DNA of 42,732 nt, taken from a virus. Its lineage: Duplodnaviria > Caudoviricetes. The translations under genes and the position numbers were made by a program. Shown piece by piece: positions 20,849 to 42,125 of this stretch. Below the pieces are notes generated by a model. The model searched no databases and was not told the DNA's origin. It worked only from the letters and a program-made list of their open reading frames with translations. The stretch covers positions 1-42,732 of the IMG/VR virus record IMGVR_UViG_3300031953_000287, one strand, 5' to 3'. Positions within the stretch are counted from its first letter, which is position 1. Each line of letters starts with the position of its first letter.

Positions 20849-20876
20849 CTTTCGCATTATAATCAGATAACGCAAC
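20849..20876. repeat. 28-bp 11-6-11 junction site (dispersed family)
   Basis: CTTTCGCATTA TAATCA GATAACGCAAC. Confidence 0.6.
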
Positions 20877-21308
20877 CTATACCTCTTTTTTATTAATTTT
20901 AGCACTTATATTTTGTATGTACCCTAGTGTGTGGTTTAATTGTGTTGCTATTTCTTGAAGTGATTTCCCTTTTGCTCTAAGATAAGCCACCTTATACTCT
21001 AAATCATCAAATATCTTTAGTTTATCATCAATCAATTTTTCTTCATTCATCATACCCTCTAGTATTGTATTATCTATTAGCATCATGTTTTCAAGTCTAG
21101 TCATAGCTTCTTCAAGTCTACCGTATTCAACTGAACATCCTCCTGGTGGCATATCTGTATAAACCATTGCACGAAGTTCTTTAACAGGAGATACAAACGC
21201 ATTCATTAAGGTAGTGAGCTGTTCTTTCTGTTCATCATGACATTTTAATCTAGTCTTTAGAGCATCTATTTCAAGTATTAATGTCTTATAATTATCTATA
21301 GAATACAT
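20877..21308 (-). CDS. Late transcriptional activator (ArpU/RinA-like, sigma70-r4-type HTH)
   Basis: YTDMPPGG motif; C-terminal GKSLQEIATQLNHT; upstream of terS. Confidence 0.75.
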   Translation of the reverse strand: MYSIDNYKTLILEIDALKTRLKCHDEQKEQLTTLMNAFVSPVKELRAMVYTDMPPGGCSVEYGRLEEAMTRLENMMLIDNTILEGMMNEEKLIDDKLKIFDDLEYKVAYLRAKGKSLQEIATQLNHTLGYIQNISAKINKKEV

Positions 21309-21317
21309 TTTATCCCC

Positions 21318-21512
21318 CTATCTAAATGTTATTACTAAATTCTCAACATAATCTTCTAATCCACATTCCGAACAAACTAATTGCGTTTCTTTGTAATCTT
21401 CATGGAGCAGATAACTTTGACCTTCTATTTTTATATTTGTAACTTCTGTTTTTTTAAAGTTTGTAGAACCACATTTAAAGCAACTTAGTATTAATTCCAT
21501 TTTATCCCCCAT
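21318..21512 (-). CDS. Zinc-ribbon protein
   Basis: CFKCG..CSECG. Confidence 0.55.
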   Translation of the reverse strand: MGDKMELILSCFKCGSTNFKKTEVTNIKIEGQSYLLHEDYKETQLVCSECGLEDYVENLVITFR

Positions 21513-21899
21513 TTTTAATCTTTTTACGTAACTTACATTTAGCTACTGCATAACTAAAAAACTCATTATCCTTTTTCTTTAGTTCCTCGCGGTGTTTCTG
21601 TTCAATTTCTTCCGCCATTATTAAAGCTAGTTCTTTCCAATCTTTCTTTTCTATTGCTTCATCTGCGGTCATACTTACCACTCCTTATTAATAAACAAGT
21701 CATAATGCTACCGATTGTTAGTACAAAAATAGTTAATACCATCTTCATAGTTTTATAACTTTACTAAACTCTTTTCTAGCCTTCGTGTCCATATTCTCTA
21801 GTAATATACCGCAATCTTTGAAACTCATGTCTGTTGCCCTTGTAAGGCTCATTTGTGTTAGTAATCTTTTAATAATGTTCATTGTTTACCCCCCTATTT

Positions 21900-21927
21900 A
21901 TTGCGTACTGTTTTTGAAGTATGCAAT
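21900..21927. repeat. 28-bp 11-6-11 junction site
   Basis: ATTGCGTACTG TTTTTG AAGTATGCAAT (arms 9/11 inverted). Confidence 0.65.
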
Positions 21928-22667
21928 TAACTTGTTAATTTTAATGTTTTGTCATACCACTTTTTATCCATATCATTTACTATAAATTTTCTATTAGTAT
22001 TTTTACAAGCTATTGCAGTAGTTCCTCCACCAACAACACCATCAAATACAATATCACCCTCATTTGTATAGGTTTTAATTAAATATTCAAATATTGAAAT
22101 AGGTTTAGCATTTACGTGACCACCATGGATACACCCATGTTTAAAATAATGTCTTTCTGCTTTCTGTCTTTCTACACCTTTTTTATCTGTATATTTCTCA
22201 TTTTGATTATTGAAAATCCAGTTACTACCTTTCCTGTTCCAAATAAAAAATTCATAAGGTTGCAATGCCATTCGTTGCATATTAAATACAGAAGGATTAG
22301 CTTTCTCCCATATTCCTATTCGTCTACCTCCGTAATCTTTGCCTTTTATAAATGTTTTATATATATTTTCTATATTATTAAGTTGTTGCCATGCACTCCA
22401 AACAATAATACTTCTACTAGGTTTTAGTATCCTATAACATTCCTTAATATAAGTATCTACATCAAATTCTTTATCCCACTCGCCAAAATCCATACAACAA
22501 TAATCACTTTTCCCATCTTTTGCTTGATGTTCCATTATGTTTTTAAAGTTTTGTTTTTTACTTATTAAATATGGTATATCTGTTAAAACAAAATCTACTG
22601 AATTGCTTTCAATTTTTTTAAATAAATCAAATACATTTTCATTGTAAACCATATTGGTTTCAATCAT
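21927..22667 (-). CDS. N6/N4 DNA methyltransferase (beta class), orphan
   Basis: TDIPY..DFGEWDK..HVNAKP..VFDGVVGGGTT. Confidence 0.9.
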   Translation of the reverse strand: MIETNMVYNENVFDLFKKIESNSVDFVLTDIPYLISKKQNFKNIMEHQAKDGKSDYCCMDFGEWDKEFDVDTYIKECYRILKPSRSIIVWSAWQQLNNIENIYKTFIKGKDYGGRRIGIWEKANPSVFNMQRMALQPYEFFIWNRKGSNWIFNNQNEKYTDKKGVERQKAERHYFKHGCIHGGHVNAKPISIFEYLIKTYTNEGDIVFDGVVGGGTTAIACKNTNRKFIVNDMDKKWYDKTLKLTS

Positions 22668-22806
22668 TTTTAATCACCCAATACTTAGGTTTCCATATAT
22701 ATATTTTACCTAAATTAAATTTTGTATTAGTTATATTCCATATCCATTTTTTACAATTTATAATGCCTATAATTTTAATTAATCTCATAAATATTCTCCT
22801 CTCATT

Positions 22807-22834
22807 ACTTCGTCCTTTTCTCATATTACGTAAT
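22807..22834. repeat. 28-bp 11-6-11 junction site
   Basis: ACTTCGTCCTT TTCTCA TATTACGTAAT. Confidence 0.6.
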
Positions 22835-23361
22835 CATTTAGTTCCCCATGCTGAACTCATTTGTTCTAATTCTCTTTTTGTGATAGTCTCTATATCTAAG
22901 TCTTTGGCTTCTTGTACTACTCCGTTTATTAAAGCTGACATTTCTAAATTTGAGTATGTACTACTACCAAAGAAACATTGAATTTGTACTCCTGTCTTTC
23001 CATTTATAGTAACCTCACCTAATTCTCTGACAGTTCGCCATTGTTCTATAACCCTTTGTACTACATTCTCTTTAACTATGATGTGAGTAAATACTCCATA
23101 ACGGTCAAGCACTTGCAGATATAATTCGTCTTTAGTTGTTCTTAATGCTACCGACATTTTGTTGAGCAGTACCCATAAATACGCATTACTATCAAGCGAC
23201 CTTTTAACTCTATACTGTTTAATATCTACAACTAACATTTTACCTTTTGATATTATTTCTTTTAACTCATCTATATTTATATTACCTTTTGCTTTTAAGA
23301 CTATTTCAGCTTCTTTATTTTCGTCATATTGGATTCTTATATTATTAGCTAATATTTTCAT
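22834..23361 (-). CDS. NinB-like recombination protein
   Basis: KRSLDSNAYLWVLL..GSSTYSNLEMSALINGV. Confidence 0.7.
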   Translation of the reverse strand: MKILANNIRIQYDENKEAEIVLKAKGNINIDELKEIISKGKMLVVDIKQYRVKRSLDSNAYLWVLLNKMSVALRTTKDELYLQVLDRYGVFTHIIVKENVVQRVIEQWRTVRELGEVTINGKTGVQIQCFFGSSTYSNLEMSALINGVVQEAKDLDIETITKRELEQMSSAWGTK

Positions 23362-23705
23362 AATATAGGCTCATAATCTTTATATAATTTCATCCAATCG
23401 TTTATTGTCATAGTAACGAGCCATTCCGATCTATCTTTCCTGTGAAATACTGTAGGCAACTCTGTTTCTTTTACATCTGCTTTAGCTTGGCTTATTGCAT
23501 CATATATATTTAGCTTTTCTACTCTTTTACATTCAATGTGTATACCATCTAATCCAACCACATCAGCATCACCATTAGCACCACAGTATTGTTGTCCTCT
23601 CCTAGTTTTGAACCCATATTCTTTTAACTTGCTTGATAATTCCCTTTCACCTCTAGCACCTTTAGCTTTACTATTAACTTTCAATACATCCGCCCCCCTA
23701 AACAT
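23358..23705 (-). CDS. PD-(D/E)XK Holliday junction resolvase-like nuclease
   Basis: SKAKGARGERE..ADVVG..HIECKR. Confidence 0.75.
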   Translation of the reverse strand: MFRGADVLKVNSKAKGARGERELSSKLKEYGFKTRRGQQYCGANGDADVVGLDGIHIECKRVEKLNIYDAISQAKADVKETELPTVFHRKDRSEWLVTMTINDWMKLYKDYEPIL

Positions 23706-24049
23706 CTTCTAATGAGTTGCTCCGAACTATAGCCTAATACATAGTTTGATAATTTCTTTAGTATCAAGTCCATATCTTTATCAGTACACTGTAGATTAGT
23801 CTGTATTTCCTCTCTACTATAAAATTTATTTATAAAAATAGTCTGTAGTCTAGTTTGTAGTTGTTGTTTCAGTTTTATATCTAGTTTCTTGTTACTGTGT
23901 ACTCCATGCGTTCCCCTGTGGCAATCCATACAAAGAGGTACTAGATTAAGTTTAATTGTTTTCATATGCCTAGCTTGGCTTCTAAGAATTACATGATGCC
24001 ATTCAACATATCCACTCTTTCCGCAATTGATACATTCACCGCCACACAT
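23681..24049 (-). CDS. HNH-type nuclease
   Basis: CINCG..EWHHV..LVPLCMDCH..GVH. Confidence 0.75.
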   Translation of the reverse strand: MCGGECINCGKSGYVEWHHVILRSQARHMKTIKLNLVPLCMDCHRGTHGVHSNKKLDIKLKQQLQTRLQTIFINKFYSREEIQTNLQCTDKDMDLILKKLSNYVLGYSSEQLIRRCLGGRMY

Positions 24050-24399
24050 TAGTAGCCTTCTTTTTGTCTGATATGATTAACTAAATTCTTTTTAACATAA
24101 GCCTGTTCTATTTCCTCTACTGTGAATTTCATTGTATTTCCTATGCTAAAGACAAAATGTAGTATGTCAGCATATTCATCAAGTAGACGTTCTTTTGATT
24201 CACTCGGCTTATCTGACCAGTATTTGAAGCACCTTGAAGCATTTGCGAACTCTCCAACCTCTGCGAATAATGCTAATATCCTATCATTTAAAAACATTAT
24301 GTCGTTATGCCTATTTTTATCGTTTGGATTGACTACAATCTTTTCTACAATAACTTTATCTAGTTTATCTTGTAATTTATAAAACTCTTTTAATTCCAT
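24049..24399 (-). CDS. dut: Dimeric dUTPase / MazG-fold nucleotide pyrophosphatase
   Basis: ALFAEVGEFAN..FKYWS..LLDEYADILHF..KKNLVNHIRQKEGY. Confidence 0.85.
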   Translation of the reverse strand: MELKEFYKLQDKLDKVIVEKIVVNPNDKNRHNDIMFLNDRILALFAEVGEFANASRCFKYWSDKPSESKERLLDEYADILHFVFSIGNTMKFTVEEIEQAYVKKNLVNHIRQKEGY

Positions 24400-24409
24400 G
24401 TTATCCCCC

Positions 24410-24985
24410 TTAAATTTCATTACCCCAATTATCCATAAATTTTGCTATCATTCTTAATTCTTCTGCTGTTGAATCTTGTTTGTGTTTATTACATCGCCAA
24501 CATAAAATAGCAACGTTGTTTTTTTCATACCCCTTATTAGAATCAACTCTATCCATAGAGGGAGAATTATCATTAAATTTGTTATCTTCTTTAAATCCAA
24601 TATCCAATTGTTTGTCACAACACTCACATTTAGGATTTTCTGATAATCTGTTCATTAAATATTTAACTGTAAAAAAATCATTATCAAATTTAATGTTCTT
24701 TAATCTTGACCTTTCTACCATACCTTGTCTTAACAACTGGCATCTTACCCTTAATGGTTGTAATTGTTTCCTTTTATTTTCTCTTTTCTTAACTTCTAGA
24801 CCTTCTGTTTCTGCATAACGTATTCTTCTTTTTGTAGCCAATCTTTTACTGTTTTTTGTTTTCCAATCTTTTGAATATTTATTTTGACAACTTTTGCAAA
24901 TCCCTGCGAATCCATCTTTGCAATGTATATTTTTAATAAATTCATCTAATTGCCTGTATTCACTACATTTATTACATTTTTTCAT
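24410..24985 (-). CDS. HNH/His-Me homing endonuclease
   Basis: CNKC..CKSC; SPSMDRVDSNKGYEKNNVAILCWRCNKHK. Confidence 0.8.
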   Translation of the reverse strand: MKKCNKCSEYRQLDEFIKNIHCKDGFAGICKSCQNKYSKDWKTKNSKRLATKRRIRYAETEGLEVKKRENKRKQLQPLRVRCQLLRQGMVERSRLKNIKFDNDFFTVKYLMNRLSENPKCECCDKQLDIGFKEDNKFNDNSPSMDRVDSNKGYEKNNVAILCWRCNKHKQDSTAEELRMIAKFMDNWGNEI

Positions 24986-25024
24986 AATATTCACACCTCA
25001 TTTCTATATAATAATCAAAGTATG

Positions 25025-25636
25025 CTATAAACTATTTTGCTGTGTAATTAATTTAATACTTTTATTAATGTCTTTACCATCTAAATCAAATCCTAATGAA
25101 TCCCAACCTTCAAATTTTTCTCTAGCAAATAATTCTATTTTTCCGTTTGCATTAGCGCTGACTTTTTCTATCATTGTTCTCATTTCAATAGGTTTCTGAC
25201 TATGTTCCCTTCTAGGAGAAATCACAATTGTGTTGCCTTGCTGCCTTTTACCATCTTTGCTTGCATAAGGTATCATTCCTTTTCTGCCAAATAGACACAC
25301 TTCGTCTTGCCCTCTAAAGTATTGTCCTAGTCCTGCATTGTCAAGTTTTAAAACCCCATCTTGCAAAATTTTTCCTTTTACCCATGTAATCTTAGTTATA
25401 TACTTAAACCCCCATGCCTTCATAACTAACAACCCATCTTCTAAAAAATTATTAGTAACCCATAGGTATATATGGCAATTGTCATCTGTTATTTTTGCAA
25501 CTGGTAAGTTAGCAATATCTTTAGTTTTCATTAAAGGATAATGCCTATCTGCCCCTCTTTTTATTTTTCCACCACCTGATTCATTCCAAGGTGGATCTGC
25601 ATATATTATTTGATATTTTTTATTAGGAAATTTCAT
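25025..25636 (-). CDS. MT-A70-family adenine methyltransferase
   Basis: YADPPW..YLWVTN..WGFKY..HSQKP..IELFAR. Confidence 0.92.
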   Translation of the reverse strand: MKFPNKKYQIIYADPPWNESGGGKIKRGADRHYPLMKTKDIANLPVAKITDDNCHIYLWVTNNFLEDGLLVMKAWGFKYITKITWVKGKILQDGVLKLDNAGLGQYFRGQDEVCLFGRKGMIPYASKDGKRQQGNTIVISPRREHSQKPIEMRTMIEKVSANANGKIELFAREKFEGWDSLGFDLDGKDINKSIKLITQQNSL

Positions 25637-25690
25637 TGTTATCCCCCTCCTGTGTATAAAACTGTGCATAACTTAACTTTCCGTTAAACT

Positions 25691-25954
25691 CTAGTCCGAA
25701 AAAACAACCTCTGAACTTCTTAAATCTGTAATACAACATTCACATAGTGCATTGCCTTTATAGTTTGTCATATCCTCTTGAACATCTCCGCATAATGTAC
25801 ATCCACGCTTGTACTTCTTTAAGATAATAGTATCTTTGTCTGTGTATATTTCCATTGGTGTTCCGCTTGGTAAGTCTAATTTATTTCTTAATTCTGCTGC
25901 AATTACAATTCTTCCTAATACATCAATTTTTCTAACAATTCCAGTATCACGCAT
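25691..25954 (-). CDS. abrB: AbrB/SpoVT-family transition-state regulator homologue
   Basis: TGIVRKIDVLGRIVI..ELR..IILKKY plus C-terminal CxxC..CxxC. Confidence 0.88.
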   Translation of the reverse strand: MRDTGIVRKIDVLGRIVIAAELRNKLDLPSGTPMEIYTDKDTIILKKYKRGCTLCGDVQEDMTNYKGNALCECCITDLRSSEVVFSD

Positions 25955-26016
25955 TATTAATTCCCCCTTATTATGTATAAATATAAGTAACAAGATTTAT
26001 ATTTCTTATTACTTAT

Positions 26017-26045
26017 ATTATACCATAATTTAACGTTTAGTTAAA
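26017..26045 (-). promoter_or_regulatory. Promoter of the AbrB-like gene with TTAAC-N5-GTTAA palindrome
   Basis: TTTAAC-17-TATAAT with TGn; palindrome at 26030-26044. Confidence 0.55.
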
Positions 26046-26070
26046 GACTTTCTTAAAATGTTATTTTCTA

Positions 26071-26475
26071 CTAGAACGGAATATCATCCTCTGAAACTTC
26101 TGCAGACTCATTATTAGAATATTCTTCGTTTACGTGTTCACTTGTGGAAATACTTTCACCTTTCTTTTCTAAGAAATTAACTTCATCAGCAATCACTTCC
26201 GTTACATATCTTCTTGTACCGTCCTTAGCTTCATAATTCCTTGTGTTTATACTTCCAGCTAAACTAACTAACTTGCCTTTAGTCATAAAATTAGCCACAT
26301 TTTCTGCTAACTTATTAAAACAAACTATTTGTATAAAATCTGCATCCGGCTGACCTTCTTTTTTAAATCTTTTATTTACTACTAAAGTGAAATTGCAAAT
26401 TCCTACTCCCGTTCCTTGCGCAAATTTAAGTACTGGATCGGCGGTTAATCTCCCAACTAAAACTGTTTTATTAAT
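26071..26475 (-). CDS. ssb: Single-stranded DNA-binding protein, probable ATT start
   Basis: (M)NKTVLVGRLTADP..ADFIQIVCF..DDIPF; AGAGGG 8 nt before ATT. Confidence 0.88.
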   Translation of the reverse strand: MNKTVLVGRLTADPVLKFAQGTGVGICNFTLVVNKRFKKEGQPDADFIQIVCFNKLAENVANFMTKGKLVSLAGSINTRNYEAKDGTRRYVTEVIADEVNFLEKKGESISTSEHVNEEYSNNESAEVSEDDIPF

Positions 26476-26506
26476 GATAATTACCCTCTTTCTTTTTTTA
26501 TTTGTT

Positions 26507-26534
26507 GTTGCGTGTTGTTTTTGAAGTGTGAACT
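26507..26534. repeat. 28-bp 11-6-11 junction site
   Basis: GTTGCGTGTTG TTTTTG AAGTGTGAACT. Confidence 0.55.
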
Positions 26535-26537
26535 AAT

Positions 26538-26666
26538 TTATTTTGGTATTTCTGATCCAACATCTTCAATGTTAGCAAATTCTATTCGTCGTTTTTGTGC
26601 TTCTACATCCTTATAACCTTCGATTAGAGCCAATTCTATATCTTTTGGAATTTTATTCTCCGTCAT
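26538..26666 (-). CDS. 42-aa hypothetical protein between two junction sites
   Basis: RBS AAGGAGG; MTENKIPKDIEL..EIPK. Confidence 0.5.
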   Translation of the reverse strand: MTENKIPKDIELALIEGYKDVEAQKRRIEFANIEDVGSEIPK

Positions 26667-26683
26667 CTTAATTCCTCCTTTCA

Positions 26684-26733
26684 ATGTCGTATTATAATCA
26701 CACATATTGCCTACAGTTTTTGTATTGTGACAG
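26684..26733. repeat. Two overlapping 28-bp junction sites
   Basis: ATGTCGTATTA TAATCA CACATATTGCC and ATTGCCTACAG TTTTTG TATTGTGACAG. Confidence 0.6.
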
Positions 26734-26734
26734 A

Positions 26735-26971
26735 TTATAATGTATTAAAATACTCTTGTTCTTTATAAAATTCATAAATACCAATTATATCGTTTTCGTT
26801 TTTTAATATTTCTACCTGTGATTTATCCATAGCAAATTTTACAACTTTATTGTTTTCATATCCAGTAAACTCAACGCTCCCATCTTTATTATAAGTAGTA
26901 CCATTTAATTTTATTTCACCCTCAACTTGCATAAACGTTCTTATCAAATCAACTTTATATTCAATTAACAT
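26735..26971 (-). CDS. Hypothetical protein
   Basis: ORF track; RBS AGGAGG. Confidence 0.55.
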   Translation of the reverse strand: MLIEYKVDLIRTFMQVEGEIKLNGTTYNKDGSVEFTGYENNKVVKFAMDKSQVEILKNENDIIGIYEFYKEQEYFNTL

Positions 26972-26994
26972 TTTGTTTCCTCCTATCAATTTTT

Positions 26995-27037
26995 AGTTCA
27001 TACTTTTCTCATAGTAACTATTTTTGTATGATGCAAC
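26995..27037. repeat. Compound 28-bp junction sites
   Basis: AGTTCATACTT TTCTCA.. and ..TTTTTG TATGATGCAAC. Confidence 0.5.
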
Positions 27038-27041
27038 TAGA

Positions 27042-27203
27042 CTATTTGTATAATTCAATATTGCTTATTTGATGTGTTGCCCCTTCATATCTTTTATCTT
27101 TCATTTCCTTTTGTATATAATCCCATGCTTTATCCTCTGTTTCACATACTACACAATTAATATCTTTGTTTTCAGCAAAACAATGTAATGTTACTAATAC
27201 CAT
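27042..27203 (-). CDS. 53-aa hypothetical protein
   Basis: RBS AAGGAGG; MVLVTLHCFAENKD.. Confidence 0.5.
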   Translation of the reverse strand: MVLVTLHCFAENKDINCVVCETEDKAWDYIQKEMKDKRYEGATHQISNIELYK

Positions 27204-27227
27204 CGATATTACCTCCTTATATTTTAA

Positions 27228-27527
27228 TTAAAGTACCTCTGTTAATACCCTAAACTCTTTTAACATTTGTCCCTCAAATATACATTCAACTGGTATATTT
27301 AAAAGCTTATCTATCGTTTCTACCTTTGCATCTTCTAATAGCTTTTGCACACCAGTTGCCATTCTAACTAAGCCTTCTGTTGTTCCCTCTGCACCTTTGT
27401 AGTTAGGATTGTAATAGTAATTCGTTCCAACTCCCCAACCCTCTCCACCTAATTCAAGGGTTAATCCAAACATATATTCTCTAAACCCAAATTTTACACT
27501 TTTAATTTTTGCTAATTTCTTTTCCAT
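27228..27527 (-). CDS. Hypothetical phage protein
   Basis: ORF track; RBS AAGGAGG. Confidence 0.6.
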   Translation of the reverse strand: MEKKLAKIKSVKFGFREYMFGLTLELGGEGWGVGTNYYYNPNYKGAEGTTEGLVRMATGVQKLLEDAKVETIDKLLNIPVECIFEGQMLKEFRVLTEVL

Positions 27528-27546
27528 AATTTCCTCCTTAATTTTA

Positions 27547-27574
27547 GTTGCACACTTTACTCATATAGTGCCGC
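27547..27574. repeat. 28-bp 11-6-11 junction site
   Basis: GTTGCACACTT TACTCA TATAGTGCCGC. Confidence 0.45.
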
Positions 27575-27652
27575 TACTCAAATATAATAATGCAGATCGG
27601 CAACACTAAAAACATAATTATAAATATTACATACATTCCTTTATCGCAATCC

Positions 27653-27928
27653 CTATCCATTATTTTCATTTTCTATTTCAATAATAGTCATTAGCGAATA
27701 GTTTGCTAAGTCTCTTAATGTATCAACTATACTTTCGTCACTTACCATTGCTGATTCTTTTATAAGCGTTTTAAATCTATTAAGCTTATCGTCTAGCCTT
27801 ATTGCAGCCATTATAACACCGTAGTCTTTATAGGATTTTCCGAAACTATCACCGTAATCATGATTTTTAGATACATATAATTCTTTTAATTCATCACATA
27901 ATTTTTCATGTTCTTTTATTTTGTTCAT
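27653..27928 (-). CDS. DUF1599 / nucleotide-modification-associated domain protein
   Basis: KNHDYGDSF..IRLDDKLNR..DESIVDTLRDLANY. Confidence 0.85.
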   Translation of the reverse strand: MNKIKEHEKLCDELKELYVSKNHDYGDSFGKSYKDYGVIMAAIRLDDKLNRFKTLIKESAMVSDESIVDTLRDLANYSLMTIIEIENENNG

Positions 27929-27954
27929 TTTAAAACCTCCATATATTTTATTTG

Positions 27955-30243: not shown

Positions 30244-30867
30244 TTATATTACCCCCTCTAAAGCATTTTCTTTATGATTCGGTTTAGTATTTAATTTCTT
30301 TGTTGCCGTATTCCAACTTTCAAAATTCATTTGTTCAAACTTTGTGATATTGTAAGCTGCGCATATAGCCGATTCTTTTATGCCTTTTTTAATTGCTAGT
30401 GTTTTAATAGATTCAACTTTATTTTTATCTATTAATGTAATTGTAGGTTTTTTTTCTTCTTTCTTATCTGTTTTGTTCCCTGTTGCGTGGTTTCCATCGT
30501 CGTCTTCTTCACCAGCTAAACCCAACATTGCACTTAGTTGATACCTACGAGCATATGTTATAGCACTTCCAGCTCCCTGTGCGGTTACTTTATCAGCCTT
30601 TAATGTTAATACATCTGATTCAATCCATTCTCCCTCACACATCAATATAGTTACACATGATACTGATTCACCATTGCCACTCGGTATCTGTATATATGAA
30701 AGACCATATTTCCCTAGTGATTCTTTAGCGGTGTTTATTACTACATCTAACGGAGCGTACTTACTTTTAAAAAATGGATTACTAGCACTGTTTGGTGGAT
30801 TTTTCACTTCTGATTGAAATTTGCTTAATGCCATTGATAACTTTGTTATACTTTCAGATTTATTCAT
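30244..30867 (-). CDS. erf: ERF-family single-strand annealing protein
   Basis: NPFFKSKYAPL..QGAGSAITYARRYQL..DDDG. Confidence 0.92.
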   Translation of the reverse strand: MNKSESITKLSMALSKFQSEVKNPPNSASNPFFKSKYAPLDVVINTAKESLGKYGLSYIQIPSGNGESVSCVTILMCEGEWIESDVLTLKADKVTAQGAGSAITYARRYQLSAMLGLAGEEDDDGNHATGNKTDKKEEKKPTITLIDKNKVESIKTLAIKKGIKESAICAAYNITKFEQMNFESWNTATKKLNTKPNHKENALEGVI

Positions 30868-30884: not shown

Positions 30885-31073
30885 CTATATACTATTAATA
30901 TTTATATTTAGTACCCTAGCTAGTTGTTTCGCTTGAAGTAAACTTATATTTCTGCCATTCTCAATTTTTGAATACTCTTGGGTAGATATATTTAAGTAAG
31001 TTGCAACGTCCTTTTGAAATAATTCTTTTTTTACCCTTGCGAGTTTTAATTCCATTCTTTTCATTTTGTACAC
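30885..31073 (-). CDS. Cro-like XRE HTH regulator
   Basis: LKLARVKKELFQKDVA..YSKIENG; divergent from cI. Confidence 0.85.
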   Translation of the reverse strand: MYKMKRMELKLARVKKELFQKDVATYLNISTQEYSKIENGRNISLLQAKQLARVLNININSI

Positions 31074-31117
31074 CTCTTTCCTTTTCTTGGATTAATTTAC
31101 TATATGTTCTGTAATTT

Positions 31118-31169
31118 CATTATGTGCTTAAAAGTTAAACAAGTCAAGTAAAATTTATCAGAAAGTTAA
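31118..31169 (-). promoter_or_regulatory. Early lytic promoter and adjacent candidate operator
   Basis: TTGACT-17-CATAAT; TTAAC-N5-GATAA at 31155-31169. Confidence 0.6.
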
Positions 31170-31309
31170 AATCTTTTTTCTTAGTAGCGAATTTCGTTCG
31201 CCTTACGCAAACGCACTGTTAAAGTTTAATGAACCTCTCTAAAAAGTGTATCAAATTTTTAACACTCGGATATAATATTAGTAGATTGAAATTTGTGGGG
31301 GGTATTAAT

Positions 31310-31976: not shown

Positions 31977-32004
31977 ATTGCGTTATATTTTTGTATGATG
32001 TAAC
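31977..32004. repeat. 28-bp 11-6-11 junction site
   Basis: ATTGCGTTATA TTTTTG TATGATGTAAC. Confidence 0.6.
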
Positions 32005-32309
32005 TAAATTAAATTTTTTGAATCAATTATTTTTGTAGTGTGCGGATTAAATTTGTCTAGTGCATATTGTAATCCAAAATGTTTTATAGCCATAGAATAT
32101 TTGTCGATATAAAAATAGCATTCATTTGATTCGCATTTACAAGAAGTTTGCATTGTAGTTGCTTTGTTTCTCCAATTAGAACACTCTTTATTAACCCATT
32201 CACAGTTATTCTTTTCAAACAATGTCAAAATCCTATCTACTTCTTCTTTGTTTTTGCAATATACAATATGTCCTTCATTTATAAATTCTAAAATATTAAT
32301 ATCATTCAC
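32004..32309 (-). CDS. Hypothetical protein flanked by two junction sites
   Basis: ORF track. Confidence 0.6.
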   Translation of the reverse strand: MNDINILEFINEGHIVYCKNKEEVDRILTLFEKNNCEWVNKECSNWRNKATTMQTSCKCESNECYFYIDKYSMAIKHFGLQYALDKFNPHTTKIIDSKNLI

Positions 32310-32325: not shown

Positions 32326-32353
32326 GTATCGCCATATAATCATATTACACATT
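32326..32353. repeat. 28-bp 11-6-11 junction site
   Basis: GTATCGCCATA TAATCA TATTACACATT. Confidence 0.55.
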
Positions 32354-35009: not shown

Positions 35010-35038
35010 ATTATACTACTAATATGATAGCATTACAA
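35010..35038 (-). promoter_or_regulatory. Sigma-A promoter of the accessory operon with inverted repeat in the spacer
   Basis: TTGTAA-17-TATAAT; ATGCTA..TAGTAT. Confidence 0.7.
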
Positions 35039-35105
35039 CCCTATTTAAAAAATAAATTTCCGAATTTAAGGATAAATATACCCTAATATATGTTATAATA
35101 TAAGT

Positions 35106-35265
35106 ATCATGGTAGAGAGTTATAAATTGTGTGAAACAACTATACTAATATAGAGGATAGAACAGGTAGCTATCACCACACAGAAATGTGTTAGGAAATG
35201 TGGAAAGACCGACCACCTATATTAGAAAAGCAACTATATTTGTAGCAAGGTATAGTTGCTTTTTT
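35106..35265 (+). ncRNA. Candidate structured ncRNA (~160 nt)
   Basis: TGnTATAAT 35091-35099; nested stems; GAAA-loop hairpin; terminator 35226-35265. Confidence 0.6.
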
Positions 35266-35355
35266 ACGTTTACTATTCAGTACCTCTCTGCCGTGTATAA
35301 ATGTTTCTATATACATAAAAACCCCCTATTTCTAGGAGGTTAATTGTTGTGCTAT

Positions 35356-35532
35356 TTAATTTGGATTGTTAGGAACTTCAAGTCTTGTAAAATGTGTAAC
35401 ATCATCTGGAAAGTCACAGTCTAAAGGATTTCCACAATAAGGTGGCTCCTCTATAGGAAACTTCCACCATAAACAATCCGCATCTTCTTCGTACCAATCT
35501 TCAAGCGTATAAAGTTTTATTTCATTATTCAT
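35356..35532 (-). CDS. 58-aa acidic protein
   Basis: Hand-translated MNNEIKLYTLEDWYEEDADCLWWKFPIEEPPY..; RBS GAGGGGG. Confidence 0.6.
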   Translation of the reverse strand: MNNEIKLYTLEDWYEEDADCLWWKFPIEEPPYCGNPLDCDFPDDVTHFTRLEVPNNPN

Positions 35533-35628
35533 AATATCCCCCTCAATTTCAATAATATAAATATAATCTTTTCTAGTACCTTATTGCCCTTGTAAGCGTA
35601 TTTTTCAAAGTATAAAGTTTGTAGTTCA

Positions 35629-35934
35629 TCAACTAACTTTGTCATATAATATAAACCCACCTAATGTTTGTCTATCGTCCAATTCATCTCCTGTTATTCT
35701 TTTGTATTCTAACCGCAACAAAGATAAATTTTTACTATATGTCATTAAAAAATTACTGTATTTTTCAATTTCGATATCTGTTCTGATAGGCTCTTCGATG
35801 TAGCAACTGCACCTATAAAACAATTCTAAAGCTATATTATACCTATTACAAAATTCTCTATGGTTTAAAACAAAATCTCTAATATTCAAACAAATTCGCC
35901 CCCTAATATGGTAACTCGTCAGTTTCGACATCAT
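35629..35934 (-). CDS. Hypothetical protein coupled to the primase-helicase
   Basis: ORF track. Confidence 0.55.
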   Translation of the reverse strand: MMSKLTSYHIRGRICLNIRDFVLNHREFCNRYNIALELFYRCSCYIEEPIRTDIEIEKYSNFLMTYSKNLSLLRLEYKRITGDELDDRQTLGGFILYDKVS

Positions 35935-37783
35935 TTACATAAACAGGATTTAGGGTATTTTTTCTTTTAGCATCCAAATACTTTCTCCATCCAAAATTAT
36001 AAGCTTCTGCGTTCCCTGTGGCCTTGTTGATTTCTAATAATAGGCCCGTTTCAACTTCAAAATGAATATCACATACCGGATTGTCTGAATAGTATCTATT
36101 TTTTAATACTGAAATTCTACCATGTATACCCTCGGCTTTTACTTCTTCGTCATACTCTTTTCTTACTGAAATAATATTATCAGCCTTATTTGCTATATCT
36201 GCGGAACCACTTATTTGTTCAAAATCCATATCGTCACCTTTTTTTAATGTTTTATTAGGATGAATAACTAAAATAATATGTGTATTATATGCTTGTGCTA
36301 AATCGTGGCACCTCTGAACGAAGTCGGCTTGTGCTTCTAACTTGTCAGCAGCTTGAACGGATAAAATGCTCATAAGGTTATCTATTACCACTAAATCAAA
36401 CTTATTTATTTTAATTTCAATTTCTACCATTTTGAATAACTGTGCTATGGTTTTTAGTTTAGATTCGCCTTTGTTGAATAAAGTAAACTTTCCTTTGTGC
36501 CACTCTTGTATAGCTTCTAAGACGTCTTTCTTTGGCTCCTTATGATACTTCCTATTAATTTTAATTGTATCGTAAGCGTTAACGTCACGTCCTATAACAC
36601 ATTGATACAATTCGTTTATCAATTTTTCCGGGTCACCCTCACCACTCATAAGATAAACTTTGTTATTTTTATCTATTGCATTAGCCATTATTTGTTTTGT
36701 AAATGTTGTTTTCCCTCCGTTACTTCTCCCAGCTATAAGAGTTACACATCCAGGGGCCAGTTCGTTTATTGCGTCATCTACACTATTAATCCCTGTTGGT
36801 ATATACTTTCCTGTTTTTGCTTTAAGGCCCATATAAGGTGTTTTGTCTAAATCCCTCCGGCCCTCGATTTTAAATCGACCGCTTTCAATTATTTTTATAA
36901 TCCTTTCTTCTTTAAAAAATATAAATTCCTCGTTTATATCATTGTGGGAGTATAATTTTTTATCTATTAACTTTGCCTTTTCTCCAAATGCTTCAACAAA
37001 TAACTGATCCATAACGGTTCCGGCCTTGTCATTGTCAGAAACTATTATTAAATTATCAAATTTATTTAAGTATTCTTTGGCCTGTTCTATTAATACATTT
37101 AAACTCCCAGCTCCAGCCCCAACACTAACTACATTCTTAAAACCGCATTGTGAAATAATCATGCAATCAAATTCACCCTCACATATGATTAATTCGGCCC
37201 CTGTTTCAATATTCTGTGAGTTAAATAGATAAGGTTTACTTCCTGTTATACTCTGCATTTTAGGTTTTCCGGGGTTTTTAATAGGTTTCCTTGTCTTATA
37301 CCCTATAACAGTTTCATGTTTAATATATGGAAATGCTATTTTCCCATCATAGGAACCTAGTTTAAATTCATTTATAGTAGTTGGTGTAATACCTCTTTTG
37401 CCTATATATTCAATACATTCATCAGTAATAGGCTTTACTTTCTTTAATTGCTCTGAAAATGTATCTCTATTAATTTGCATAGAGGTTTTTTTATAATCTT
37501 CTACACCTAATAATTCGCTTATTATTTCTTGATGTGAATAATTCAAGTGTTCTCTGTAGTAGCCATATAAGTCGATATTCATACCACACCCGAAACAATG
37601 ATACTGCAAAGCCTTTCTATCCCAACTCATACTTGGATCCTTATCACCATGAGTATGTGCTGCGGTATTAGGGCATCTATAACTTTTGCCTTTACTAACT
37701 AAATTCAAGCCGTTTGCTATTATGATTTCAGCCTGTTGACCGTACTTCTGTTTTATTTCCTCTATTTTTTCTATTTCATTCAT
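35903..37783 (-). CDS. Bifunctional primase-helicase (Zn finger + TOPRIM + DnaB/SF4)
   Basis: HGDKDPS..CFGC; ICEGEFD..DNDKAG; AGRSNGGKT; VIDNL; SGSADI. Confidence 0.92.
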   Translation of the reverse strand: MNEIEKIEEIKQKYGQQAEIIIANGLNLVSKGKSYRCPNTAAHTHGDKDPSMSWDRKALQYHCFGCGMNIDLYGYYREHLNYSHQEIISELLGVEDYKKTSMQINRDTFSEQLKKVKPITDECIEYIGKRGITPTTINEFKLGSYDGKIAFPYIKHETVIGYKTRKPIKNPGKPKMQSITGSKPYLFNSQNIETGAELIICEGEFDCMIISQCGFKNVVSVGAGAGSLNVLIEQAKEYLNKFDNLIIVSDNDKAGTVMDQLFVEAFGEKAKLIDKKLYSHNDINEEFIFFKEERIIKIIESGRFKIEGRRDLDKTPYMGLKAKTGKYIPTGINSVDDAINELAPGCVTLIAGRSNGGKTTFTKQIMANAIDKNNKVYLMSGEGDPEKLINELYQCVIGRDVNAYDTIKINRKYHKEPKKDVLEAIQEWHKGKFTLFNKGESKLKTIAQLFKMVEIEIKINKFDLVVIDNLMSILSVQAADKLEAQADFVQRCHDLAQAYNTHIILVIHPNKTLKKGDDMDFEQISGSADIANKADNIISVRKEYDEEVKAEGIHGRISVLKNRYYSDNPVCDIHFEVETGLLLEINKATGNAEAYNFGWRKYLDAKRKNTLNPVYVNDVETDELPY

Positions 37784-38438
37784 TATAAGGTACCTCCACA
37801 ATTTTTACTTTAGGCTTTTGTGAAGTTGTTTTTGTAGTTTCTATATAATCCATATACCCACCGTTAAAAAATGTACTACCGTAAGGAATAAATTTAATTT
37901 CAGTTTTCTTGTTTTCTTCTATAAATTGTTTAACACATTTTTCTAATTCTTCATATCCTAATTTTTTTAATAATTTAGGTATAGTTTTCATAGCAGAAGC
38001 TTTTCCTTTTTTATTTGGGTAAAGGCTCCATATCTTATCTGTGTTTATATCTGTGTTTATATATGGTATAGGTGCAACGTTTTCGGTATATCCATTTGAC
38101 GTTTTCGGTATATCCATTCCACCATATGGTATAATGTCTGTTACCAACGTTGTTAGGGTAAACCAGCGCGTTCTGTCATAACCGACTTTATTATAGTTGC
38201 CTACGAGTATTGCACCTTTATCTTTTAAAGATTTTAGTACTCTATCAATCTGTCTTTCACTCCAATATGGAAATAATTCACTAAATGCTCTAGTGCTATT
38301 ATAAGTCCAATAGAAGCCATCATAAAAGTGTGTCCTATTTGCTTTATTCTTGACTATCCAAAAATGCAAGTTGTTAATTACTATTGCTTCATCAACCCCA
38401 TATTTTTGTGCCATTTCAATATTAAAAGCGTGATCCAT
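37776..38438 (-). CDS. Replication initiator (winged helix plus C-terminal YPNKKGK domain)
   Basis: AQKYGVDEA..YWTYNS..FPYWS..YDRTRW; IWSLYPNKKGK..PYGSTFFN. Confidence 0.85.
   Translation of the reverse strand: MDHAFNIEMAQKYGVDEAIVINNLHFWIVKNKANRTHFYDGFYWTYNSTRAFSELFPYWSERQIDRVLKSLKDKGAILVGNYNKVGYDRTRWFTLTTLVTDIIPYGGMDIPKTSNGYTENVAPIPYINTDINTDKIWSLYPNKKGKASAMKTIPKLLKKLGYEELEKCVKQFIEENKKTEIKFIPYGSTFFNGGYMDYIETTKTTSQKPKVKIVEVPYNE
38037..38118. repeat. Iteron-like repeats (probable origin) inside the initiator gene
   Basis: ACGTTTTCGGTATATCCATT at 38077 and 38099 (22-bp period); ATCTGTGTTTAT twice at 38037-38060. Confidence 0.7.
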
Positions 38439-38651
38439 CGTTAATTCCTCCCTTTGTTTGAGAAAAGAATTATATTCCTGTATATTTTATATACATTTTG
38501 GTATATACTATAAATAGATTAATATTTAAGCATCTAACTGAATATAAATTTTCTCATTTAGCGAGTCGACCATGACTTGCTATTTTTCTTTTTTGCTTTG
38601 GTATTCTCATTATAAACCCTCTTTACGTTAAATTCTATACTTTGAGTTAAA

Positions 38652-38912
38652 TTATTTATATTGTTCTAGTAATACTCTAACTTTTTCAGCAATGGGTTTA
38701 TTGAGTTCAGAATGTCCTTTTTTATGTGATTCTAAAATAACACCTAACATTAATCTAAGTGTTTCCCTGTCTTTAATCAAAAGTTTAACTTCGTCTAATA
38801 TTTGCTTATTTCCACTCTCTAATAGCTTATTTCTTTTTTGAAAATCTTCGATTACTGATTCTAAACATTTAACTATTGGTAATTTTATATTCCTATTGTC
38901 TTTTATTATCAT
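38652..38912 (-). CDS. Hypothetical coiled-coil protein
   Basis: ORF track; directly follows the AbrB-like gene. Confidence 0.55.
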   Translation of the reverse strand: MIIKDNRNIKLPIVKCLESVIEDFQKRNKLLESGNKQILDEVKLLIKDRETLRLMLGVILESHKKGHSELNKPIAEKVRVLLEQYK

Positions 38913-39062
38913 TTATTTTTTACCATCCTTCTCAATAATTATCTTACCACCTTCAATAGATACATTCACATAGTCGCCTATAAATACACCTATCTCCCTT
39001 AATTCTGTTGTAAGTCTTACCAATGAAGCACCGCCAACTGTTCCCACTTTTCTTTTAGACAT
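38913..39062 (-). CDS. 49-aa AbrB/MazE-fold DNA-binding protein
   Basis: MSKRKVGTVGGASLVRLTTELREIGVFIGDYVNVSIEGGKIIIEK. Confidence 0.75.
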   Translation of the reverse strand: MSKRKVGTVGGASLVRLTTELREIGVFIGDYVNVSIEGGKIIIEKDGKK

Positions 39063-39082
39063 TTATATCACCTCTTTATTAC

Positions 39083-39111
39083 ATTATATACGATATGATA
39101 TGATATAGCAA
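39083..39111 (-). promoter_or_regulatory. Sigma-A promoter of the replication operon with ATATC x3 in the spacer
   Basis: TTGCTA-TATCATATCATATCGTA-TATAAT. Confidence 0.75.
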
Positions 39112-39175
39112 CCCTTTTTAATATTTAATTTTAGCAATAAAAATAAACCCCTAGAAAAAAATCTAAGGGTATTTG

Positions 39176-39589
39176 TTATTTTATATTATTTACAAAGGTT
39201 TCTACTATATAATTTATAAGTTGGTTACGGCTATAATGTTTTTCTTCACAAATGTGGTCTAGTCTATCAACTAAATCTAATTCCATAACTACATTAAAAG
39301 CTTTCTTAGTTATTTTCTTTTTAGTCTTAGTTGGTATCTTAAATATATCATCTTTAACTAGATTAGTTTTGTTGGCTACTTTTTTAGTCTGTGTAGTTGG
39401 CTTATCTTCAATACTTACATATTGTCTAGTTGCTGAACTGTATACATAACCATTCTTCTTAAATAAATCTGATATAGTACTCTTGTTTAGTTTTAAGTCT
39501 GTACTTATAGCACGTATACTCTCACCATTGGCTAGTCTATTGTTAATATTAGTTACTTCTTCTATTGAAAATTCCATTTGATACATCAC
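39176..39589 (-). CDS. HTH plus C-terminal RHH DNA-binding protein (plasmid-type, possibly partition/copy control)
   Basis: GESIRAISTDLKLNKSTIS..; KAFNVVMELDLVDRLD..SRNQLINYIV. Confidence 0.65.
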   Translation of the reverse strand: MMYQMEFSIEEVTNINNRLANGESIRAISTDLKLNKSTISDLFKKNGYVYSSATRQYVSIEDKPTTQTKKVANKTNLVKDDIFKIPTKTKKKITKKAFNVVMELDLVDRLDHICEEKHYSRNQLINYIVETFVNNIK

Positions 39590-39656
39590 CCCTAAAACTA
39601 GTATACCCCAAAAAATAAAAAAATACTCCTACATTTTACTGTAAGAGTAGACTAGT

Positions 39657-39854
39657 CTATAGTTTATCTGTGTAGCCTGTGCCTGTTGATGGATTTGATA
39701 AAATACCAGCTAGTACGAGTATTCCAAGTATTGCAGAACATATTTCTGTGTAGTTTGTTGGCAACACATCTACACCAAAACCCTCTAATATCATTGGTAT
39801 TAAAGCTAATATTGAAACCCATAAGCCGACATTTTTAAAACGTGAATTTTTCAT
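39657..39854 (-). CDS. Holin
   Basis: RFKNVGLWVS..two TM segments..GILSNPSTG. Confidence 0.85.
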   Translation of the reverse strand: MKNSRFKNVGLWVSILALIPMILEGFGVDVLPTNYTEICSAILGILVLAGILSNPSTGTGYTDKL

Positions 39855-39905
39855 TAATAATTACCTCCTCGAATATATTTAGATAGACCTTGACCACCTA
39901 CCTCT

Positions 39906-40583
39906 CTAAACTAAAGTAACAAAAGCCTTTATACCTAATTTATTTATTCTTTCAGCTTCTGCATCTGCATAACTTTTGTTTGAAAATGCGCCAACTTGAA
40001 TTTTAAAATAATGACCTTGTGGTGCTATGACATCAATATTTTTGTCAGAAACTTTGACAATCTTTTTTTCGACAAAAGGAACTTTTAAATATTCACATAC
40101 CCCACGCGCTATAAGTTCAGCTATTTTTTCGATATTGTTCATTATAAAAACACTGTCGAGCGGTGAATCGTGGAAGGCAACCTCTAAGTACGCAGCCACT
40201 GCAACAGTATGATTTAATTCATACAAATTATCATTCTGTCTACATCCTCTATCCGGCGTAGGTGTAAAAGCTTCTAATCTCTTATATATTGCATTTGATA
40301 GTTTAAAGCCACTATCACTCACATACATACTTTGAGTACCCCTAACGGCCTTATTAAACGCATTAGAATGTATAGCAATATGTATATCACACTTTAACTT
40401 ATTTGATTCTGCTACCGCTTGTTGAAAGGTCATACTTTTATGTGAAATATATGTTTGTTGTTTGCACCTCTCTAATATTCTTTTTGTTGCTTCGCCTACT
40501 TTGTGCATTTCGTCTTGTTCTGTTCCATAATTTCCGTAACCTATGTTTCTGTTTTGGTTTGATGGACTTAGATATATATTCAT
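39906..40583 (-). CDS. Endolysin: N-acetylmuramoyl-L-alanine amidase (Amidase_3) plus SPOR domain
   Basis: IYLSPSNQ..E..IAIHSNA..YLEVAFHD; FKIQVGAFS. Confidence 0.92.
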   Translation of the reverse strand: MNIYLSPSNQNRNIGYGNYGTEQDEMHKVGEATKRILERCKQQTYISHKSMTFQQAVAESNKLKCDIHIAIHSNAFNKAVRGTQSMYVSDSGFKLSNAIYKRLEAFTPTPDRGCRQNDNLYELNHTVAVAAYLEVAFHDSPLDSVFIMNNIEKIAELIARGVCEYLKVPFVEKKIVKVSDKNIDVIAPQGHYFKIQVGAFSNKSYADAEAERINKLGIKAFVTLV

Positions 40584-40595
40584 AATGTTTCCTCC

Positions 40596-40829
40596 TTATT
40601 TACTGCTTAATGTCCATATCATTGTTAAAATATTTAAAACTACAAAACCTATCGTAGTATTACGCATAATCTTATAAGTATCTAAAATAGATTGGACGTT
40701 AATTTCTATTCTAATATCGGTTTTTTCTATTTTTATAATATTTGTTTTAATATCTTTTACATCAACTTTAATACTTTTTATTTCTTCTTCGTGTTGTTCT
40801 AGCATAAGTTCCGTACGTTCTTCTCCCAT
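40596..40829 (-). CDS. XhlA-like coiled-coil/TM lysis protein
   Basis: Coiled coil plus C-terminal TM; upstream of the endolysin; RBS AGGAGG. Confidence 0.6.
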   Translation of the reverse strand: MGEERTELMLEQHEEEIKSIKVDVKDIKTNIIKIEKTDIRIEINVQSILDTYKIMRNTTIGFVVLNILTMIWTLSSK

Positions 40830-40893
40830 GTTGTGCCTCCTGTTTGTCATTTATCGCCTATTGTTTTTTGCCATGAAAGAAAATATAATAAAT

Positions 40894-40958
40894 TATAATC
40901 TTTCGGGATTATAGTATTTACCCTAAAGGTGGATTTTGCGATTGCCTTTAGGGTTTTT
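40894..40958 (+). ncRNA. Candidate antisense sRNA (~63 nt)
   Basis: TTGTTT-17-TATAAT 40861-40889; UUCG hairpin 40894-40913; plus-strand terminator 40920-40958. Confidence 0.5.
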
Positions 40959-40961
40959 ATG

Positions 40962-41006
40962 TTATTTTAGTTTATAAAAAAGCCACCAAAAAAAGTTTGG
41001 CATCAT
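40962..41006 (-). CDS. 14-aa aromatic peptide MMPNFFWWLFYKLK
   Basis: Strong RBS AAAGGAGGG correctly spaced before ATG. Confidence 0.5.
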   Translation of the reverse strand: MMPNFFWWLFYKLK

Positions 41007-41151
41007 AATAATCCCTCCTTTCCTCACCTTTTACATAAAAAAATAAGCACTGATTAGAGTGCTTATATCTTATTATTTAAATATTATGCTAGCTGAATCA
41101 TATATTCCTAAGTCGTCTTAATATAATGCATATTTAAAAAGAAAAGAGCAC

Positions 41152-41973
41152 TTAATTAGTGCTCTTCCTATATAATGCAATAAAACCTCTTGAATGTTCT
41201 GTTGGTTCTTCTGTTATATTAAACATTAACATAGAGAAGAACATTGATATTTTTCCTAATTGATTATAAAGCTTGTATTTATACCAAAATTCACTTACAT
41301 TGTCACCATCATCATTAATATTATTTATAAAGAGTAATTTTTCTCGCTTAAGTCCCTTTACACTAGAAAATCTATTTTCAATAGCATTCATATCATACCT
41401 TTTTTCATATCCATGATGATAATGTTCGGTAACAGATTCACTAAATTCTGGACTATAAGGAGCTGTGAATATAAAGTAACCATCATTTTTTAAAACACGA
41501 CTAATTTCATGTATAGCATCTATGTCCCCTCTATCTGGAATATGCTCCAATGCACTTATAGAGCATATAGCATCAAATGTTGAGTTTTCATAAGTCATTT
41601 TTGTTGCATCTTGACATTCTATAAAAAACTTTTTATCAAGTTCTTCGATTCCACCGATATTATAAAGATAATGCTTTTGCATTTCAAGTTGTTTCAAATC
41701 TATGTCGGTTGCATAGGTATTACATTTAAACTCATTGAAAATCAATGTAGCCCAAGTTGTACTTGAACTTCCAATATCCAACACTTTCGAATCATGATTA
41801 AGTTTGTCTTTTAACCACCTGTATGGAAAAACATACTCATAATTTCTATAAATATCTATTCCTGATGTTTCTCTATTGCTATCAATTTTACAGTTAATGA
41901 AATACAATTCGATTAAGTCTTGTAGCAATTCTTCATCAATATTAATTTTCTTAATATATTCTTCAAATATCAT
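41152..41973 (-). CDS. Class I SAM-dependent methyltransferase (Methyltransf_11-like; not DNA-type)
   Basis: VLDIGS..DATKMTYENSTFDAICSISALEHI..EISRVLK.DG..IFTAP. Confidence 0.85.
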   Translation of the reverse strand: MIFEEYIKKINIDEELLQDLIELYFINCKIDSNRETSGIDIYRNYEYVFPYRWLKDKLNHDSKVLDIGSSSTTWATLIFNEFKCNTYATDIDLKQLEMQKHYLYNIGGIEELDKKFFIECQDATKMTYENSTFDAICSISALEHIPDRGDIDAIHEISRVLKNDGYFIFTAPYSPEFSESVTEHYHHGYEKRYDMNAIENRFSSVKGLKREKLLFINNINDDGDNVSEFWYKYKLYNQLGKISMFFSMLMFNITEEPTEHSRGFIALYRKSTN

Positions 41974-42097
41974 CTCATCATCTCCTATAATGTAATTCTC
42001 CTTATTATACTGCATTTTATAGGAAATAAACAGGTTATATGGAAAACAAAGCCTTATTAGTCAAATATCAAATTATAAGTATATTTTTATTATACTT

Positions 42098-42125
42098 ATG
42101 TCGTACTGTTATCATAAGACGTTAT
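42098..42125. repeat. 28-bp 11-6-11 junction site
   Basis: ATGTCGTACTG TTATCA TAAGACGTTAT. Confidence 0.6.

Follow-up and report, generated by a model that had tools for sequence, protein, structure and literature searches.

The elements reported here are a dispersed family of 28-bp sites in a tailed phage genome (IMG/VR record IMGVR_UViG_3300031953_000287; we call the whole 42,732-nt stretch analysed the window), and the closest described systems are as follows. In integrons, and in clusters of attC sites lacking integrases (CALINs), single-gene cassettes carry their own site at the 3' end, the crossover falls on the border of the right box, spacers need not match and arrays can stand without a nearby integrase; complete integrons were not found in Firmicutes (PMC4889954). 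The pdif (dif) modules of Acinetobacter plasmids have 11-6-11 sites flanking accessory genes, an enzyme that acts in trans, and single modules that appear in several contexts (PMC9455709). The SE elements of Vibrio have a 6-bp spacer, a strand-biased exchange and a spacer that is carried into the new right junction (PMC9345347). Outside the Proteobacteria, rAID-1 of the Bacteroidales forms integron-like arrays with repeated intergenic motifs and a recombinase linked at the array head (bioRxiv 10.1101/471110). The recombinases of tyrosine-recombinase IS91 elements are the closest relatives of IntI, although without its insertion, and the available part of that report gives no target rule (bioRxiv 10.1101/542381). 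Finally, SPBRE is a dispersed 15-bp intergenic repeat in the Bacillota phage SPbeta, where it serves as a promoter-region operator for the phage-encoded repressor MrpR, a catalytically dead tyrosine-recombinase fold (PMC10516654).

We think it likely that the 28-bp elements in the window are recombination sites of a clostridial gene-cassette system, with an integron-integrase-like tyrosine recombinase acting in trans. The system works like that of integron cassettes and yet is not an integron, as it has no IntI beside an attI and no attC hairpin. Its sites are dispersed, fall into two centre classes and, judged by their length and by the 1–9 matches of 11 between their arms, are unfolded. They have the geometry of pdif sites, but they carry one symmetric arm motif instead of XerC and XerD boxes and do not match our candidate for the host dif site. 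All of the sites here point one way, whereas pdif sites alternate in orientation. The clostridial arrays described below have no linked recombinase, in contrast to rAID, and SPBRE differs in having no cassette polarity. SE elements are autonomous and take the carried spacer from their left end, whereas the centre carried in the phage is the nearly invariant 3' one. IS91 elements insert at sites with these arms in Clostridiaceae, but the phage cassettes encode neither recombinase nor transposase. In the full-text literature, a coverage that excludes most subscription papers, we found no description of this clostridial site family.

The original prediction listed 12 sites, and all 12 strings are present where it placed them. 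With a leave-one-out model, 7 of the 12 rank first among the non-training positions, where at most 0.3 would be expected in shuffles. We also trained an independent model on 25 sites of other phages, with the window sites excluded. Nine of the 12 reach at least 12 bits in this model, while the sites at 26995 and 27010 score 11.3 and 9.0; 26684 fails (-3.9) because its left arm is degenerate, and it is a half site. Scanning the window gave 10 hits of at least 12 bits, the nine listed sites and one coding hit at 7751, whereas 100 local dinucleotide shuffles gave 1.07 on average and never more than 4. The 28-bp sites are real. As predicted, most of them carry CG at positions 5-6 of the plus-strand left arm (8/12, in a genome with a CG observed/expected ratio of 0.65) and start close to a stop codon (-1 to +4 nt in 8/12). 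The 11-6-11 layout also stood, with arms that are only weakly palindromic. Given the weak palindromes and the lack of a T-run, we rejected a terminator or RNA hairpin.

A single shared core, T..T(CA/TG), had been proposed, but we found two distinct centre classes with a polarity that was missing from that description. Read on the gene strand (the minus strand, which carries nearly all of the phage genes), class A sites have the centre TGA[T/G]WA and open a slot, and class B sites have CAAAAA and close the slot at the stop codon of the cargo. Of 37 phage sites, 15 have the centre CAAAAA, 8 TGAGAA, 7 TGATTA and 2 TGATAA, and the other five are singletons. A purine-rich ribosome-site motif follows 17 of the 19 A sites (random 31%). 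The arms that face the cargo score higher than the outer arms, both in A sites (right 9.4 versus left 4.4 bits) and in B sites (left 8.5 versus right 6.2). The window has five A-gene-B units, a sixth that ends in a half site, and a lone site at 42098. Most slots do hold a single small gene as was claimed, although two hold two open reading frames (ORFs). The tandem sites had been taken for empty slots; they are B-then-A junctions of neighbouring cassettes rather than clean empty slots.

The A-gene-B order occurs in 18 slots in 9 phage or prophage loci. Outside the window these are in G001 (two), G002, G003, L061 (three), L062 (two), G367 (two), G455 and the G399 prophage, and two of them are A-B-B arrays. 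One exchange is seen in the relative G001, which aligns with the window in BLASTN blocks of 70-96% identity. The two genomes have the left arm and centre of the site at 32326 in common, and their homology breaks off at 32337, where the centre ends. The right arms differ, an unrelated gene takes the place of the window cargo, and homology resumes at the B site. Between erf and DUF1351, L061 and the prophage G367 each have a different A-gene-B unit with similar right outer arms, and one cassette is found in two genomes with different flanks (L116, L117). We also compared pairs of phage and chromosomal sites, leaving out self-overlapping pairs, the coding-hit pair L102/L126 and out-of-register pairs. 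Pairs with upstream DNA in common have identical centres in 7 of 8 cases, and in-register pairs with downstream DNA in common in 2 of 6, with two class changes among the latter; the centre therefore travels with the upstream side. As in integrons, the cassette has its own site at its 3' end and the crossover lies at the right-box edge, with one contrary joint (n=1).

A cassette would then consist of a right arm, ribosome site, gene, stop codon and left arm, ending with its own 6-bp centre, which is mostly CAAAAA. It would form a circle carrying the B centre and insert into a target, with the TGA-type centre of the target remaining on the left. Because the A and B centres do not match, we predict exchange of one strand only, which replication would resolve, on unfolded double-stranded sites; integron cassettes and the SE elements (PMC9345347) are the analogy. 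The recombinase would be supplied from outside the phage.

The phage genome is 42.5 kb with a terminal repeat of 230 nt, and a Pfam scan of the window ORFs found portal, terminase, tail, Erf, SSB, primase-helicase, sigma factor and lysis genes. The best named matches are Clostridium phage phiCT453A for the terminase (76%) and a C. estertheticum plasmid-prophage for DUF1351 (57%), so the host is probably clostridial. We found no convincing site in phiCT453A, and methylase and DUF1351-alignment searches among viral contigs yielded no useful relatives. The claim that the phage encodes no recombinase held up: the tyrosine recombinase family PF00589 is absent from the window (0/1) and the Pfam scan found no integrase among 81 window ORFs. 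The scan did find several helix-turn-helix and ribbon-helix-helix proteins. With these, and with MrpR and SPBRE as a precedent (PMC10516654), the sites could be operators or transcription roadblocks of a phage or host DNA-binding protein, as the original prediction had allowed. We regard this as very unlikely because there is no site in the repressor/cro intergenic region (31073-31229), the number and place of the sites vary among relatives, the sites coincide with insertion ends and Pfam detects no protein of the recombinase fold in the window.

The same sites occur in Clostridiaceae chromosomes (G623, G452, G508) as co-oriented cassette arrays with their own promoter-like stretch and two accessory motifs. 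By translation reading, their cargo includes acetyltransferase-like, regulator-like and unknown proteins. Cassettes of this chromosomal type are also found in phage context, as the YopX cassette of G001 and as a cassette at a phage-type slot in prophage G455. The promoter-bearing cassettes (L133, L134 and L136, which are the G623 arrays, and G001 6081-6694) start with a 5' motif that resembles the rRNA antitermination boxA, and have an inverted 15-bp accessory repeat at both ends; an antitermination signal and a site for an accessory protein are possible functions. The 5' motif was matched in 275 of 351 genomes, with at least 5 copies in about 84 (hand count; control 1), but because of the likeness to boxA, rRNA operons inflate these numbers, which cannot be read as numbers of cassettes. 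The B pattern was found in 33 of 351 Clostridiaceae genomes, about the same as the reversed control, and served only for finding loci. A strict B pattern had 0 matches; a scan of all GTDB genomes gave 36 scattered matches, which we read as chance, a Clostridia-wide sample 8/301 and a non-Clostridiaceae family 2/38. A strict pattern of A site plus ribosome site matched 0 of 351 genomes; known prophage sites fail to fit this pattern, so the result is uninformative.

Which enzyme acts on the sites? A 330-aa XerS-like gene is present in 77 of 81 Clostridiaceae genomes, including all five that are rich in arrays, and the sites might be secondary targets of this housekeeping recombinase, making them the clostridial counterpart of pdif modules. 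Beside the gene, 31 of 34 loci (L155, L158, L167, L171, L268-L297) have an 11-6-11 palindrome with a variable centre, which by analogy with XerS/difSL is a candidate for the host dif site. Prediction of dif failed for two Clostridium species (PMC3025954). The palindrome has CG at positions 5-6 like the phage arms, and its centre is TGATTA in 2 of the 31, but its arms end in AAA: position 10 is A in 62 of 62 palindrome arms and T in 95% of phage arms. A model of the palindrome ranks the listed sites from 32 to 24,524, although it is narrow and penalizes any deviation. The phage also has a separate dif-type copy of its own, and so we consider it quite unlikely that XerS is responsible. The proposed identity with host Xer dif or pdif sites was thus not borne out, and 57 of 58 phage arms fit a model of IS91 targets (see below) better than the dif model. 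The dif-type copy (16914..16942) is a near-perfect palindrome of the xerS-adjacent type outside the cassette family, with a 7-nt centre that is 6 nt in the relative L265. This palindrome, the lack of an integrase and a RepB-like regulator gene (39176-39589) suggest that the phage is a plasmid prophage that borrows host dimer resolution.

Two other candidate recombinases were examined. Enzymes of 350-370 aa that are IntI-like head co-oriented Clostridiaceae arrays with long attC-like hairpin sites (L245-L247, L251, L252); this is a separate system, whose right boxes resemble the arms of the phage sites, and we set these enzymes aside. The recombinases nearest to the chromosomal arrays, a 208-aa prophage enzyme and a 342-aa enzyme within a type I restriction-modification locus, were also set aside. 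The third candidate is a 282-aa recombinase (PF13495 and PF00589) that is paired with an IS91 transposase. Relatives were matched in 66 of 342 genomes, with the 350-370-aa group counted in, and the transposase is present in 29 of the 30 best loci. The candidate enzymes belong to an integron-like subgroup, but in contrast to IntI they lack its insertion, match TIGR02249 in two stretches with 196 and 220 bits, where the integron-integrase cut-off is 265, and are unlinked to the arrays.

The targets of these IS91 elements resemble the phage sites. Of 36 left target arms, 18 fit the phage arm model in register (background 1%; 0-3 at other offsets), as do 11 of 17 right target arms. Conversely, a model built from 48 target arms only, with no centre, ranks eight of the listed sites 1, 2, 6, 7, 8, 10, 12 and 13 among 42,475 positions. 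Identical IS91 copies enter such sites in a single register, and the break falls where the centre meets the right arm. Within one genome, identical copies keep their own 3' hexamer; their left centres differ in G540, show little variation in G506 and do not change in G406. In prophage G616 the element lies between the centre and right arm of a lone site that follows the tail genes (the tail-lysis junction); in pCM034-51 a site that shares this left arm stands empty, as does a similar site in G003. Among the pattern hits in viral contigs, 7 of 11 (6 distinct) are empty sites at gene ends in low-GC phage contigs (the other four are coding or unrelated), and five of these are directly before holin-like or lysin-like ORFs, by translation reading, or a tail gene. 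Lone sites at the end of the tail module occur in other phages as well. This shows that a recombinase-carrying IS91 element uses sites of the phage family.

The integron crossover is G/TT and IS91 ends in GTTC; 7 of 31 IS91-recombinase insertions have left junctions of the G/TT kind. We rejected target-site duplication since matching 2-nt flanks at the IS91 ends were seen in only 4 of 12 copies. In G540 (L225-L227) the two bases between the target centre and the IS91 terminus differ among three near-identical copies, and the differences fit a chain in which each copy takes two bases from the right flank of its donor (n=3). A more distant subfamily (L234, L235, L238, L239, L242) has the same centre at both ends, and its target sites resemble the left arm of Bacillus dif.

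The invariant hexamer at the end of the element (TATTCA in 13 of 17) gives an A-type centre when reverse-complemented, and one joint falls on the 5' edge of an A centre. The cassettes could then be non-autonomous passengers of the IS91 rolling-circle machinery, with cuts by its HUH transposase and the A centre as their own end. We find this extremely unlikely: the cassettes do not have the conserved terminal stretches of the element, and their centre goes with the upstream side when pairs of cassettes are compared. Of the enzymes considered, the IS91-linked recombinase fits the sites best as a binder, but it may be a parasite of them rather than their driver. It is unmatched in four of the five array-rich genomes, and motif-rich genomes show no clear enrichment for it: they make up 19 of 66 with the recombinase and 65 of 285 others, in a hand count that is confounded and has only 7 candidates scored per genome. 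With these two results, the insertions do not show that the enzyme moves cassettes.

Several further observations weigh against a cassette system. No recombination has been observed; no recombinase adjoins the chromosomal arrays; and the model does not account for how the outer arms arrive at a new junction. Among the six site-bearing regions of the window, sites are present at one in G001 and at none in L265. At the erf/DUF1351 junction an empty site is missing from all six phages compared (the window, G001, L058, L062, L265 and L151), and an empty-site search in the genus of G439 found none in 3 genomes. None of the 14 cargo ORFs compared recurred in a second phage cassette (the filter missed others), and homologs of cargo genes occur without sites, including one in prophage G367 of the 99-aa cargo ORF (27228-27527). 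We compared contig joints and loose ends in four of the 21 listed sequencing runs; runs with small shares say nothing about habitat. Among the 15 of 21 joints and 24 of 221 loose ends compared, only three ends fall at a centre edge, and one of these, a joint at 26700 at the edge of the A centre of a compound site, is on the edge opposite to the one that the model requires. A 1.2-kb indel that contains an MT-A70 methylase and an HNH-like ORF (window 24410-25642; variants without it occur in G001 and in runs X9 and X10) ends at ribosome-site microhomology and not at a site. Breakpoints in relatives were expected at the cores, and this is so for the G001 break, but most gene gain and loss breaks are elsewhere. 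Given the regions without sites, the missing empty sites and these breaks, the sites account for a minority of the mosaicism of this phage.

These observations also bear on the possibility that the sites are linkers between stop codon and ribosome site, and that genes are swapped by short-homology recombination with no site-specific enzyme. The phage encodes Erf, a candidate agent for such swaps, breakpoints between relatives are mostly at ribosome sites or gene ends, and most homologous junctions have no empty site. We believe this explanation is unlikely for the sites themselves because it does not predict two fixed centre classes, a fixed polarity or dyad arms, and because the break at 32337 is at a centre edge with differing right arms, identical IS91 copies enter such sites at one register, and there are chromosomal arrays away from phages. 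Site-specific cassette exchange by an enzyme in trans remains our preferred explanation. The geometry at the boundaries, the G001 swap, the chromosomal arrays and the IS91 insertions agree with what was originally proposed, except for the host dif/pdif identity.

Table 1. Sites, cargo and related features of the window (independent model, score of at least 12 bits in the model trained on other phages).
Coordinates	Strand	Feature	Basis or remark
42098..42125	-	Lone site TGATAA, after the last tail gene, before methyltransferase and lysis genes	Independent model
32326..32353	-	Type A site, centre TGATTA, opens slot beside repressor region	Independent model; G001 homology ends at 32337
32004..32309	-	Cargo ORF, 101 aa, no Pfam or NCBIfam match; unrelated gene instead in G001	
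31977..32004	-	Type B site CAAAAA, overlapping cargo stop codon	Independent model
30244..30867	-	Erf single-strand annealing protein	PF04404
27547..27574	-	Type A site TGAGTA	Independent model
27042..27527	-	Two cargo ORFs, 99 aa (27228-27527) and 53 aa (27042-27203)	
26995..27037	-	Compound site, B (27010-27037, CAAAAA) then A (26995-27022, TGAGAA), inner arms overlap	9.0 and 11.3 bits
26735..26989	-	Cargo ORF, about 76-84 aa, no family match	
26684..26733	-	Compound site, B (26706-26733, CAAAAA) then A half site (26684-26711, TGATTA, degenerate left arm)	
26538..26705	-	Cargo ORF, longest frame 55 aa; start after ribosome site probably near 26666	
26507..26534	-	Type B site CAAAAA upstream of ssb	Independent model
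22807..22834	-	Type A site TGAGAA, overlapping upstream stop codon	Independent model
21927..22824	-	Cargo, doubtful 54-aa ORF and DNA methylase (21927-22667)	PF01555
21900..21927	-	Type B site CAAAAA	Independent model
20849..20876	-	Type A site TGATTA	Independent model
20668..20836	-	Cargo ORF 20678-20836 (52 aa), then lone left arm 20668-20678 (B half site, not in the original prediction)	

Some features of single sites are worth recording. Directly upstream of the left arm of the site at 27547 is a second TGAGTA hexamer (27575-27591), which resembles a tandem remnant. A contig of run X11 departs from the window within the centre of the site at 26507 and enters another compound site, and prophage G367 has a different A-gene-B cassette ahead of ssb. 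A contig joint in run X12 skips from 20669 to 20896. We read the lone site at 42098 as an unfilled or once-used target. It is followed by a SAM methyltransferase moron (41152-42015), which a weak site-like match at 41092 (10.5 bits, centre GGAATA) may close. Elsewhere in the window, a duplicated promoter-like stretch precedes a small gene and a ribbon-helix-helix gene at two places (12885-13001/20358-20483; 12649-12710/20147-20208). A tail-fibre gene spans the assembly junction (window 1-1665 and 42128-42502), and the ORF at 42128-42700 is its 3' end.

Taken further, the sites may belong to a family-wide clostridial counterpart of integrons, although we offer this tentatively and with some doubt. 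In such a system, unfolded 28-bp sites with two non-matching centre classes would set the direction, a sister enzyme of IntI would transfer promoterless single genes between phages and promoter-bearing cassettes between chromosomes, while an empty landing site would be kept by phages at the tail-lysis junction. The sites are a testable substrate for IS91-linked relatives of IntI, whose activity we did not find in the literature searched. They may show how cassettes recombine in the absence of attC hairpins, and a recombinase that tolerates unmatched spacers is a possible tool. The mosaicism of phages is usually credited to homologous or illegitimate recombination. If it is true, this site-specific route would explain part of the accessory-gene turnover in Clostridiaceae, and it would be common to phages, prophages, plasmids and chromosomes in a group that has been reported to be without complete integrons (PMC4889954).

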